A stretch of DNA of 64,000 bases, taken from NCBI GenBank assembly GCA_037135035.1, contig JBAXLB010000003.1, positions 3,548 through 67,547 on the forward strand, written 5' to 3'. The notes beneath the pieces were generated by a model, which was not told the origin of the DNA, searched no databases, and saw nothing but the letters and a program-made list of their open reading frames with translations. The stretch's first letter is position 1. Each line of letters opens with the position of its first letter. The DNA is from Candidatus Adlerbacteria bacterium. Lineage in GTDB: Bacteria; Patescibacteriota; Minisyncoccia; Phycocordibacterales; SBAW01. Of the stretch, positions 21,541 to 22,281 are shown one piece after another. Both the position numbers and the translations under genes were made by a program.

Positions 21541-22281
21541 CTACACCGTTTCTGCCGTGTCAACCGCCGGAATTTCAGTGCCGCACGCACATCGCGAGTC
21601 GTGCCGACGCGGCAAAAGCAATGGCTCAAACACCTCTCTTCTGTTGACGGCCTTTATAAACTTCACAACTTGGAGTTCCATGTAATACCGATACGCATGA
21701 CACTGTTTAAAATCCCGCAAATAGTGAGGTATGTCCATCGTCGCGTTTACTTCGGCCAAAAAATGCCCTATGTGTTCCTGTGCGTTGGTTATTGGCTTTT
21801 TCTTCAATCGCAGATATTTCAGCAGCACAAAATCGACGGTGTCAGCGCGAAATAGTTCCATTAGGTCATATATAAGTGGTTTGCTTGTTGCACTCTGTGC
21901 GCGATGGATGAGTGCAAGAGAAGACGAAATGTGCTTCTCACCGATGATTTTCTCAAGTTTTGTAGCCAGATGATGGTATCCCACATCGAGCAGTTTATTT
22001 ACCACGTCAGGGCCATGTGGTTTTCGTTTAAAGCTTGCGCACCAGACTGGCAAGAGTGTTGCATACGCCTCCCAGAATACTTTCGCATTCCGTGCTTCGC
22101 ACAAAAGTATGCGTTCGTAGGTATCAGCGCCCGTGTATGCACGATGAGGAATATCCAGCTTGTATTTCTTTAAAAGATGGGTACGGCGCGAGTCTTTTAT
22201 TTCAAGTAACTCCTTGGCACTCAAAAGAGCGAGTGGTGTTGTACGGTACACAGACACACGTTCAAGCCACAGAGAGTTCAT
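21541..22281 (-). CDS. cas1: Cas1-like integrase, 'mini' form lacking the N-terminal beta-sandwich domain
   Basis: YTGADTYERILLCEARNAKVFWEAY (catalytic Glu region); RKPHGPDVVNKLLDVGYHHL; ALIHRAQSATSKPLIYDLMELFRADTVD (His...Asp/Glu, DLME.FR motif). Only about 60 aa precede the catalytic Glu, versus about 140 in E. coli Cas1. Confidence 0.75.
   Translation of the reverse strand: MNSLWLERVSVYRTTPLALLSAKELLEIKDSRRTHLLKKYKLDIPHRAYTGADTYERILLCEARNAKVFWEAYATLLPVWCASFKRKPHGPDVVNKLLDVGYHHLATKLEKIIGEKHISSSLALIHRAQSATSKPLIYDLMELFRADTVDFVLLKYLRLKKKPITNAQEHIGHFLAEVNATMDIPHYLRDFKQCHAYRYYMELQVVKFIKAVNRREVFEPLLLPRRHDSRCACGTEIPAVDTAETV

Follow-up and report, generated by a model that had tools for sequence, protein, structure and literature searches.

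The short cas1 gene at positions 21541-22281 of the window (the whole 64-kb stretch of DNA analysed here) probably encodes a functional Cas1 cut down to its catalytic domain, which would be the sole adaptation gene of a CRISPR module of about 2.7 kb from Candidate Phyla Radiation (CPR) bacteria and would most likely act as a homo-oligomeric integrase independent of Cas2. In the module as we propose it, a nuclease-dead, TnpB/Cas12f-like protein would bind the guide RNA; the other parts are the short Cas1 (hereafter mini-Cas1), a CRISPR array and, ahead of its first repeat, some 200 nt of structured sequence that would serve as leader or in a tracr-like role. Its features in the window, which is flanked at this place by ftsE and ftsX, are the following:

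23737..23766, reverse strand: sigma-70-like promoter match (10/12 consensus match only), upstream of the effector gene and within the end of ftsE
22366..23619, reverse strand: effector-like gene, 417 aa, TnpB/Cas12f fold
22322..22358, reverse strand: GC-rich, terminator-like hairpin with T-run, after the effector stop codon and before the start of cas1 (direct reading of the sequence)
21541..22281, reverse strand: mini-cas1, 246 aa, ATG start, catalytic alpha-helical domain only
22096-22098, 21904-21906 and 21865-21867, reverse strand: mini-cas1 catalytic codons E62, H126 and D139, respectively
21334..21540, reverse strand: structured conserved region of 207 nt, from cas1 to the first repeat
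21406..21420, reverse strand: small hairpin GCGC-UGUAGCG-GCGC, with a loop complementary to CGCUAC, the final 6 nt of the repeat
21008..21333, reverse strand: CRISPR array, 207 nt downstream of mini-cas1
21294-21333, 21221-21260, 21150-21189 and 21079-21118, reverse strand: four identical 40-nt repeats
21008-21047, reverse strand: degenerate terminal repeat
20983..21013, reverse strand: intrinsic-terminator-like hairpin with T-run, partly within the degenerate terminal repeat (at its 3' end) and reaching just past it

Results

Domain content and active site of mini-Cas1

The first-pass annotation had described a Cas1 with a well-conserved alpha-helical catalytic domain and apparently without the N-terminal beta-sandwich, and had proposed profile alignment and structure prediction as checks; both analyses bear the description out. 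Judged from its sequence, 21541-22281 is a true homologue of the catalytic alpha-helical domain of Cas1 alone. The protein matches the Pfam family Cas_Cas1 (PF01867) with E 1.6e-13 (50.9 bits, for a cut-off of 22.3), the alignment being limited to residues 47-161, that is, to positions 140-254 of the 283 in the profile. Profile-profile alignment with hhalign (probability 99.9%, E 7e-32) places residues 3-225 on residues 85-330 of the canonical Cas1 of about 330 residues, and in a library-wide profile search the alignment to canonical proteins of that length likewise begins at around residues 86-100. The score against the NCBIfam equivalog TIGR00287 (61.8 bits) lies under the cut-off of 71.7, because the N-terminal half of the model is missing from the protein. 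The AlphaFold2 model (pLDDT 89.7) is nearly all helix, with no beta-sandwich and with a short, disordered C-terminal tail, and in Foldseek it comes closest to solved structures of Cas1 and a casposase (query-normalised TM-score of about 0.7). From the alignment, the model and the stop codons upstream of the gene, it is clear that the N-terminal beta-sandwich of about 85 residues is missing.

The active site is intact. The motifs quoted in the first-pass annotation are present, the Glu, His and Asp residues fall in the motif columns of canonical Cas1, and E62, H126 and D139, together with E142 and N95, are invariant in 58/58 near-full-length relatives. A tail motif, LPxRHDxRC (residues 223-231), is also conserved in the family, its His and Cys being invariant. 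Between the window and its syntenic relative L001, mini-cas1 differs by 0.16 nonsynonymous changes per site and 0.86 synonymous ones (the synonymous sites being saturated), which indicates strong purifying selection on the gene.

Could the short length be an artefact, produced by a truncated or frameshifted gene, by a miscalled start or by a Cas1 split from a separate N-terminal ORF? A single 246-aa Cas1 lying beside a gene that lacks its usual C-terminal zinc ribbon could, taken alone, indeed suggest that a deletion had taken the 3' part of the upstream gene and the 5' part of mini-cas1. Nevertheless, the same gene boundaries and lengths repeat across 66 Cas1 clusters and 63 effector clusters, in lineages that are just 42-75% identical, and conservation at the N-terminus sets in with the first Met (MNSLWLERV in the window, MNALWL... 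shared by homologues), which indicates that the start codon is right. The reading frame is complete and the longest possible in the window sequence, and, since the 84 nt that separate the ATG of mini-cas1 from the preceding gene's stop codon contain three stops in frame, no upstream extension is possible, including the one encoding an N-terminal domain that the first-pass annotation had allowed for. With family-wide conservation, these stops and no conserved extra ORF in 21 neighbourhoods, an upstream extension or a split gene is refuted, and we consider an artefact of any kind barely conceivable.

Family, distribution and linkage

The short Cas1 is no one-off, being a conserved family confined to CPR bacteria. 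It comprises 66 clusters at 90% identity, with lengths of 217-266 aa, and a library-wide search with the mini-Cas1 profile returned 30 clusters at 50% identity with E<=1e-30, every one of them of at most 263 aa. Members were found in CPR bacteria only, and no viral homologues were found. Near-complete contigs with a member include JBBCGK010000001.1 (960 kb), CAZXQA010000001.1 (487 kb), CAYFMS010000001.1 (431 kb) and DASZSF010000005.1 (291 kb), and the strain of the window also occurs in the metagenomes ERZ27300054, ERZ27300101 and ERZ27300023.

The genomic surroundings are similarly constant. An effector-family gene, coding for a protein of 390-450 aa with a TnpB/Cas12f fold and with its RuvC residues lost, lies directly upstream of mini-cas1 in 17 of 21 species-representative loci (in the other four, contig ends intervene or the effector gene is downstream) and also in L001 and L003-L006. 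Seen from the other gene, essentially all effector-family loci keep Cas1. Downstream of cas1 come about 200 nt of structured sequence, conserved in the family, and then the CRISPR array.

The effector-like neighbour

The first-pass annotation had pointed to a TnpB-sized effector next to the Cas1, which is correct and can be refined. The best Foldseek match of the 417-aa protein is ISDra2 TnpB (E 3e-13), AsCas12f being found with E 4e-11 and Cas12c giving merely E~0.02. At the RuvC-I position the family consensus is LGAS, without the conserved Asp (there is an Asp nearby in P0071 only), the RuvC-II Glu is replaced by Q, T, S or P in most family members, the RuvC-III acid is not conserved and the zinc ribbon is absent. 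In the protein of the window itself, the RuvC-I Asp and the RuvC-II Glu are both replaced. On these grounds the protein is predicted to be an RNA-guided DNA binder with no nuclease activity.

The T-run hairpin that separates the effector gene from cas1 (22322..22358) is perfect in L001, L003 and L004, whereas its copy in the window is partly degenerate. It was missed by the terminator scan because its loop is too long.

Leader region, array and spacers

The conserved 207 nt that precede the first repeat contain a long stem (21462-21510) and a hairpin (21421-21449), and are a candidate leader and/or tracrRNA- or omega-RNA-like scaffold. The small hairpin at 21406..21420, with its loop-repeat complementarity, shows covariation: 97% of cells are paired, both sides are changed in 3/6 pairs, and the covariation score is matched by 0/500 shuffles. 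A duplex-energy search found no long anti-repeat, and only the 6-nt pairing of the loop with the repeat withstood inspection; no Rfam family matched the region (sub-threshold chance matches only), and RNAalifold on four leaders gave a poor result from misalignment.

The array in the window has four spacers (33, 31, 31 and 31 nt), and the hairpin at its far end fits an array transcribed co-directionally with the cas genes. Arrays were found at most related loci and are short (4-9 spacers), with repeats of 39-40 bp, spacers of 31-35 bp and a period of 70-74 nt. They are polar, with degenerate repeats at the cas-distal end and a terminator after them.

Comparison of arrays between assemblies, which the first-pass annotation had proposed, showed that spacer content differs and that the leader end varies. 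In three other assemblies with an identical Cas1, the three leader-proximal spacers of the window are missing and the distal spacer alone is kept; acquisition need not explain this difference, which repeat-mediated deletion or a collapsed assembly could also have produced. No spacers are shared between the window and L001, and one relative has two arrays with a common leader and a common terminal repeat, and not a single common spacer. The repeat of the window is not present in JGI metagenome contigs. A search with the L004 repeat gave five loci, which proved to belong to two arrays in a single genome rather than to many strain variants; between samples they differ by only one SNP and one indel of a spacer. 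As for targets, no protospacers were found in the window or in the fetched related loci when up to 7 mismatches were allowed, and the four spacers of the window have no exact 22-mer match in IMG/VR.

Taken together, purifying selection, polar arrays and spacer differences among relatives argue for an active integrase. A quite improbable alternative would take mini-Cas1 out of adaptation altogether, either as a decaying relic beside a frozen array or as a protein recruited for some other work on DNA, such as repair, a nuclease function or control of the module. It would fit the shortness of the arrays, the failure to find spacer targets (in the window and as exact 22-mers in IMG/VR) and the terminator-like hairpin that parts cas1 from the effector gene. 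Additionally, the effector is predicted to be nuclease-dead, and the module might therefore be regulatory, like the TldR and dCas12f systems, which need no adaptation (PMC10705468, PMC13472631). Against this reading stand the active site, invariant in all 58 relatives, the strong purifying selection on the gene and the retention of Cas1 in essentially all loci of the effector family. So do the variable leader ends and spacers that differ wholly between relatives, even between duplicated arrays with the same leader and terminal repeat. The exapted dead-TnpB regulators known to date, by comparison, no longer have Cas1 or arrays (PMC10691335).

Search for Cas2, Cas4 and other partners

No Cas2 or Cas4 Pfam domains were found among the 60-240-aa ORFs outside the annotated core and the unannotated neighbouring ORFs of the 64-kb window, in the Pfam annotation within ±10 kb of the same locus in another assembly, or among the neighbour genes of related loci (about 25 loci overall). 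The earlier claim that no cas2 lies nearby is thus upheld, and the absence refers to the window and these neighbourhoods. All-against-all clustering of the flanking ORFs in 21 loci returned no conserved small protein near mini-cas1. A DUF2779/Cas4-like nuclease gene is near mini-cas1 in five of these 21 loci and does not occur in the window; it is ruled out as a universal helper, and these neighbours hint that helpers are perhaps used at times.

In known systems, canonical repeat and spacer geometry depends on the Cas2 bridge. The canonical dimensions of the present arrays (40-bp repeats, 31-35-bp spacers) could accordingly be taken to mean that mini-Cas1 is catalytically competent and not self-sufficient, with a trans-acting partner that bridges two catalytic units and sets spacer length. 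Such a partner could be encoded at another place in the genome, as a Cas2 or a Cas1-Cas2 module, or be a DNA-bending protein of the host; the dead TnpB-like effector and the structured leader, as RNA or DNA, are further candidates. The strict linkage of Cas1 to the effector, the conserved structured element adjoining the integration site and the DUF2779/Cas4-like gene in 5/21 loci all point the same way. What makes such a partner unlikely, in our judgement, is that no Cas2 was found in the 64-kb window or the neighbourhoods of about 25 related loci, that mini-Cas1 lacks the domain offering a major surface for Cas2 contact and that additional CRISPR systems are rare in CPR genomes (PMC6509639).

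Discussion

A possible mechanism of integration

The N-terminal domain of Cas1 normally builds the dimer, and it is a major Cas2 contact surface in the solved Cas1-Cas2 complexes. To our knowledge, this domain participates in dimerisation in every solved Cas1 and casposase structure, which counts against the idea that a Cas1 lacking it could assemble and measure about 32 bp. In the Cas2-independent integrase that we favour, the Glu62/His126/Asp139 site would let prespacer 3' ends attack the leader-proximal repeat, so that a spacer is added and the repeat is duplicated. Because the domain responsible for the Cas1 dimer and for Cas2 contact is gone, the distance between active sites would have to be set by a different assembly, possibly one in which the C-terminal tail acts together with the helical hairpin conserved at the N-terminus, or by docking on the effector or on the leader element.

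A bolder version of this proposal, which we offer tentatively and hold to be rather less than probable, is that these loci represent a third CRISPR integrase architecture, in which a single-domain Cas1 with no Cas2 makes canonical spacers (about 32 bp) and repeats (about 40 bp) through a new homo-oligomer (perhaps involving the His/Cys tail), or with an effector or leader scaffold as the ruler. Together with its effector, it would then be the smallest known complete adaptive CRISPR system (about 2.7 kb), providing heritable RNA-guided silencing, with no cleavage, to minimal-genome bacteria.

Relation to other Cas1-family integrases

We regard the mini-Cas1 locus as a variant of Cas1-only adaptation. 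The first-pass annotation had likened it to types V-C and V-D, and the likeness stands in so far as both are type V-like loci having cas1 without cas2 or cas4 (in the present one, a single effector of TnpB/Cas12 fold adjoins a CRISPR array, and its RuvC Asp-Glu-Asp site is not intact). Published descriptions of these types likewise place V-D in CPR bacteria and presume Cas1 alone to be the integrase (PMC6977970, PMC8464041, PMC13034035), and Cas12c, the V-C effector, is another protein that silences its target and leaves the DNA uncut (10.1101/2021.12.06.471469). The analogy is functional only and does not extend to the arrays, those of V-C/V-D being described with repeats of about 25 bp and spacers of 17-19 bp (PMC8464041, PMC13034035), half the size of the 39-40-bp repeats and 31-35-bp spacers found here. 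Cas12c and Cas12d, moreover, exceed 1,100 aa and have RuvC motifs, whereas the present effector has 417 aa, is nearest to TnpB and has lost the RuvC residues; this comparison covers the descriptions of arrays and effectors.

With the canonical Cas1-Cas2 systems (E. coli I-E, E. faecalis II-A, Synechocystis 7cr6), mini-Cas1 shares a homologous alpha-helical domain with the Glu/His/Asp site, and the loci share similar repeat and spacer dimensions and a polar array with a degenerate distal repeat. It differs from them by having no beta-sandwich of about 85 residues, no Cas2 in the locus and an extra tail (LPxRHDxRC). Casposase (M. mazei, PDB 6opm), the second-best structural match, is also a Cas1-family integrase that functions without Cas2, as a tetramer (PMC6977970), but it has the N-terminal domain and a C-terminal HTH, makes target duplications of about 14 bp and mobilises a transposon, casposases lying in TIR-flanked elements that carry a family B polymerase; the window has no transposon features around the module, which sits between ftsE and ftsX, and the target would be a repeat of about 40 bp.

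A further likeness is to a sister family of short Cas1 proteins (P0181, P0296, P0194) from Uhrbacteria and other Patescibacteria, which is homologous from end to end (hhalign E 4e-41). Its members also have 240-260 aa, no N-terminal domain, no Cas2 nearby and arrays with a 65-70-nt period. Unlike mini-cas1, however, these genes are divergent to that of a 660-695-aa Cas12f-like protein with a zinc ribbon, are accompanied by a 92-94-aa helical protein and encode a different C-terminal motif (P..H.W.H, instead of P.RHD.RC). In the literature searched, we found no description of a Cas1 without its N-terminal domain.

Implications for spacer measurement

Models of spacer integration have Cas1 dimers formed via the N-terminal domain, with Cas2 as the bridge between them. 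In the one studied exception, the V-C Cas1 tetramer described by Wright and colleagues in 2019, the loss of Cas2 is reportedly paid for with half-length repeats and spacers. Mini-Cas1 would break this correlation, having lost both the N-terminal domain and Cas2 while its array units are full-length. Since the arrays are of ordinary size in spite of both losses, the spacer-length ruler would have to work differently, which raises the question of what sets it. An integrase gene of 0.74 kb in a complete module of 2.7 kb would also suit DNA-recording tools and compact programmable repressors. More generally, CPR bacteria, thought to be CRISPR-poor, would carry streamlined adaptive systems of their own.

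Relation to nuclease-dead TnpB/Cas12 derivatives

The effector resembles the known nuclease-dead derivatives (Cas12m, Cas12k, TldR, dCas12f-sigmaE and V-U variants with altered RuvC) in its TnpB/Cas12f fold and in the loss of RuvC residues. Inactivated lineages also have the RuvC-III/zinc-ribbon region reduced, as it is here (PMC10691335, PMC12669027); the latter source also describes subtypes V-O and V-P, without particulars of their loci. TldR and dCas12f-sigmaE have lost both Cas1 and arrays, and there is no cas1 in Cas12m and Cas12k loci (PMC10691335); unlike all four, the dead miniature effector described here keeps an adaptation gene and variable arrays. The effector family may belong among the catalogued branches V-U6-45. 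In standard annotation, the protein appears merely as 'HTH domain protein'.

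A Cas1 protein reduced to its catalytic domain

The mini-cas1 gene belongs to a module placed on the minus strand between ftsE and ftsX, in which the order of transcription is the gene for a 417-aa protein (hereafter the effector), mini-cas1, a 207-nt non-coding stretch (the leader), a CRISPR array and a terminator-like hairpin.

Features of the module in the window
23738-24418: ftsE, flank on the upstream side
22366-23619, minus strand: effector gene (417 aa; NCBI name only 'helix-turn-helix domain-containing protein')
22322-22358, minus strand: effector-cas1 intergenic hairpin
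21541-22281, minus strand: mini-cas1 (ATG start, 246 codons)
21973-21975: conserved codon of H103, outside the active site
21700-21702: conserved codon of C194, outside the active site
21589-21603: conserved codons of C231 and H227, outside the active site
21334-21540, minus strand: leader (207 nt), between cas1 and the first repeat; hairpin at 21406-21420
21079-21333: CRISPR array, as compared between assemblies
20030-20968: ftsX, flank on the downstream side

The upstream in-frame extension considered in the first-pass annotation is impossible, since the 84 nt that separate mini-cas1 from the preceding gene's stop codon hold three stops in its frame, and the shortness of the protein as an annotation artefact is practically excluded. 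An identical protein, deposited from a Candidatus Adlerbacteria metagenome-assembled genome, is labelled 'CRISPR-associated endonuclease Cas1', which assigns the window to a bacterium of the Candidate Phyla Radiation (CPR). The Pfam Cas_Cas1 profile matches (E 1.6e-13) only over positions 140-254 of 283, and the general NCBIfam Cas1 model over positions 145-325 of 327, with a score slightly under the curated cut-off. In a search of 1.84 billion representative proteins with a profile of 18 relatives, ordinary Cas1 proteins (~330 aa) aligned with it starting at their own residues ~86-100. With 14 such proteins aligned as the reference, hhalign placed mini-Cas1 residues 3-225 on canonical residues 85-330 (probability 99.9%). 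The AlphaFold2 model (pLDDT 89.7) is helical except for one small hairpin, with the final 13 residues disordered, and its Foldseek matches in the PDB are Cas1 structures and the M. mazei casposase (query-normalised TM-score ~0.7). The HMM alignment and structure prediction proposed earlier hence confirm the Cas1 homology and, together with the motif columns, identify mini-Cas1 as the entire catalytic domain of Cas1 minus the N-terminal beta-sandwich, whose absence had been suspected from the sequence.

The conservation of this domain, also noted at first reading, extends to the whole family: Glu62, His126 and Asp139 occupy the canonical Cas1 motif columns and, with Asn95 and Glu142, are invariant in all 58 near-full-length relatives. 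The three catalytic positions are equivalent to E141, H208 and D221 of E. coli Cas1. Additionally, mini-Cas1 carries a short C-terminal tail (LPxRHDxRC), in which His227 and Cys231 are conserved in every relative covering it. Outside the tail, His103 and Cys194 are invariant (58/58). All four residues lie outside the canonical active site and may form a structural metal site anchoring the tail.

Spread, selection and a sister family

A word-indexed search gave 66 mini-Cas1 clusters at 90% identity, 217-266 aa long save a few fragments and one 296-aa call, and an exhaustive profile search, at E<=1e-30, returned 30 clusters (50% identity), all of them <=263 aa. Scanning one genome per GTDB species yielded 21 loci, nearly all named as CPR/Patescibacteria (Paceibacterota, Kaiserbacteria, Staskawiczbacteria, Moraniibacteriota, Zambryskibacteria and bins labelled Saccharibacteria), the exceptions being one bin labelled Gammaproteobacteria and one labelled 'uncultured bacterium'. 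No relatives were found in IMG/VR viral contigs. Comparison with L001, a related locus whose Cas1 is 75% identical, gives 0.16 nonsynonymous against 0.86 (saturated) synonymous changes per site, which places mini-cas1 under purifying selection. The feature is real and conserved, and probably functional.

The next tier of profile matches includes other Cas1 proteins of 230-290 aa, which align from their own N-termini; 17 of them, aligned together, show homology to the mini-Cas1 family over the entire length (E 4e-41). The three members looked up (L009 4563-8100; L010 4657-8004; L011 4650-7926) all come from CPR bacteria and have a Cas1 of 245-250 aa, encoded divergently from an adjoining 503-695-aa protein, and no Cas2 in the locus. 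Of these neighbours, the two scanned (662 and 695 aa) retain the zinc ribbon and fit Cas12f-type models; next to them is a protein of 74-94 aa (the two scanned, of 92 and 94 aa, weakly match ribosomal protein S15), and the arrays have ~36-nt repeats with a period of 65-70 nt. Since this sister family also goes without the N-terminal domain, pairing a domain-less Cas1 with a miniature type V-like effector seems to be a solution used across the CPR.

A TnpB-like effector without a nuclease site

In the effector, Pfam recognises an N-terminal HTH_OrfB_IS605 domain alone, and the TnpB NCBIfam model matches weakly, spanning the full length. The AlphaFold2 model (pLDDT 83.7) has the TnpB/Cas12f fold, ISDra2 TnpB being its best structural match (E 3e-13, target-normalised TM-score 0.76), followed by AsCas12f and a dCas12f, which bears out the earlier description of a TnpB-sized effector adjoining cas1. 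The family comprises 63 clusters of 387-573 aa (save three fragments), mostly of 390-450 aa. In an alignment of 24 of its sequences, the RuvC-I Asp is lost (consensus LGAS; an Asp occurs nearby in one protein alone, P0071), most members carry Q, T, S or P in place of the RuvC-II Glu, there is no conserved acid at RuvC-III and the zinc ribbon is absent. From this loss of the nuclease site, the prediction is an effector that binds guide RNA and DNA but does not cleave.

The linkage of mini-cas1 to effector and array is obligate. Of the 21 species-representative loci, 17 have an effector-family gene directly upstream of mini-cas1 (in one of them, L029, with the gene order reversed), and three of the remaining four have a contig end at cas1; in the last, L030, no effector gene was detected and the 5' end of cas1 is incomplete. 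The same arrangement occurs in every locus from the exact-protein look-up. A dead, putatively RNA-guided effector nevertheless retains a cas1 gene and a variable array.

Polar arrays and a structured leader

The window array consists of four identical 40-nt repeats and a fifth, degenerate one, and its spacers measure 33, 31, 31 and 31 nt; family-wide, 39-40-bp repeats and 31-35-bp spacers give a period of 70-74 nt. The degenerate repeat stands at the cas1-distal end in the window, L001, L003 and L004/L005 (two loci of one genome), with a terminator beyond it in the window and L003. The arrays are polar and their spacers differ between relatives. Three other assemblies with an identical Cas1 (L006 10949-11060; L007 3321-3430; L008 1319-1430) have a single full repeat, the degenerate one and, as their sole spacer, the distal one, so that the window holds three more leader-side spacers. 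The comparison between assemblies proposed earlier therefore did find differences, and these fit polar acquisition, although deletion or assembly collapse would look identical. L001, at the same insertion site, has eight spacers, none in common with the window. In the L004/L005 genome, leader and array are duplicated and inverted, flanking the effector-cas1 pair on both sides (L004 2272-3041; L005 6023-6410; also L012-L016), and the two copies have the leader and degenerate terminal repeat in common and no spacer. One of these arrays contains two spacers with identical first 9 nt, ACAATCATC. No protospacers were found for the window spacers, either in IMG/VR (exact 22-mers) or in the window and fetched loci (<=7 mismatches). 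That mini-Cas1 has a role outside adaptation, or is a relic, is improbable beside its intact active site, its purifying selection and these differing spacers.

Between the window and L001 the leader is nearly as conserved as the proteins, despite the saturated synonymous sites, and the modules into which it folds reappear, with compensatory changes, in the leaders of the further relatives examined. One module (21406-21420) is a 4-bp GC hairpin with a 7-nt loop, UGUAGCG, complementary to the final six, spacer-adjacent bases of the repeat. Over 12 loci, 97% of the loop-repeat cells are paired, both sides have changed in three of the six pairs (e.g. GUAUCG/CGAUAC and GUGUCA/UGACAC), and the covariation score was reached by none of 500 shuffles, in a test that leans towards the structure because the segments were chosen and aligned by hand. 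This pairing resembles the guide-adjacent pseudoknot of TnpB omega-RNAs. No Rfam family matches the leader. These features suggest a candidate tracrRNA- or omega-RNA-like scaffold, besides or in place of a simple leader.

Proposed integration without Cas2

The reported lack of a nearby cas2 holds over a wider search. In the 64-kb window, a Pfam scan of small and unannotated ORFs revealed neither Cas2 nor Cas4; precomputed Pfam annotation within +-7-10 kb in five related contigs likewise has none, and all-against-all clustering of 470 flanking ORFs gave no small protein common to more than three of the 21 loci (the single three-locus group appears spurious). There is thus no conserved partner in these loci. 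The sole recurrent neighbour, absent from the window, is a ~490-aa DUF2779 protein found at varying positions in five of the 21 loci (L020 2104-3594; L024 2968-4431; L028 7292-8785; L029 3814-5238; L037 1686-3527); with a weakly Cas4-like N-terminus and an RNase-H-like C-terminus, it may help in prespacer processing on occasion, or its association may be coincidental.

Subtypes V-C and V-D are known to have a Cas1 that lacks Cas2 (PMC10691335). V-C Cas1 tetramers integrate DNA on their own; the arrays, with repeats of ~25 bp and spacers of ~18 bp, have a short geometry attributed to the missing Cas2 bridge (PMC6977970, PMC8464041, PMC13034035). The likeness to V-C/V-D drawn in the first-pass annotation stands for the absence of Cas2; it does not extend to the arrays, which are without the short geometry, nor to the effector, a dead TnpB-sized protein instead of Cas12c/d. 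Mini-Cas1 additionally goes without the N-terminal domain, a putative distinction from V-C/V-D; no mention of such a Cas1 was found in the literature searched. Within Cas1-only adaptation, the family is set apart by its normal array geometry and its nuclease-dead, TnpB-sized partner, and probably by the lost N-terminal domain. A TnpB/Cas12 census describes 40 uncharacterised 'V-U' branches, some Cas1-linked and some with altered RuvC sites (PMC10691335), of which the effector family may be one.

The best-supported reading, which we consider likely, is that mini-Cas1 would act as a Cas2-independent, homo-oligomeric integrase at the leader-proximal repeat; we infer its catalysis, its assembly and the ruler setting spacer length. 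The main rival, that a partner serves as the bridge (a Cas2 encoded elsewhere, a host factor, the effector or a leader element), has the normal geometry and the constant presence of effector and leader on its side and the absence of a conserved Cas2 or small protein in the loci against it, and we regard it as rather unlikely.

Insertion site and surroundings

In the window (20030-24418) and L001 (5807-10555), the entire CRISPR module sits between ftsE and ftsX, which are normally adjacent; further members of the family lie at unrelated sites, e.g. near rmuC or rplU. The effector stop codon and the start of cas1 are separated, in each of the four loci inspected, by a GC-rich hairpin with a trailing T-run. 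Weaker in the window, this hairpin is perfect in L001 (7915-8000), L003 (7939-8000) and L004 (1477-1548); it might act as an attenuator limiting cas1 expression, or form an RNA 3' end. Two small GIY-YIG-type ORFs lying near each other in the window (15630-15908, plus strand; 14941-15234, minus strand), in otherwise housekeeping surroundings, may be remnants of homing-endonuclease-like elements. A long gene run on the minus strand (33841-45055) is a candidate type IV pilus-like cluster: among its smaller genes, several have small products bearing an N-terminal methylation (pilin) motif, and there are two weak matches, PilO-like and PilN-like.
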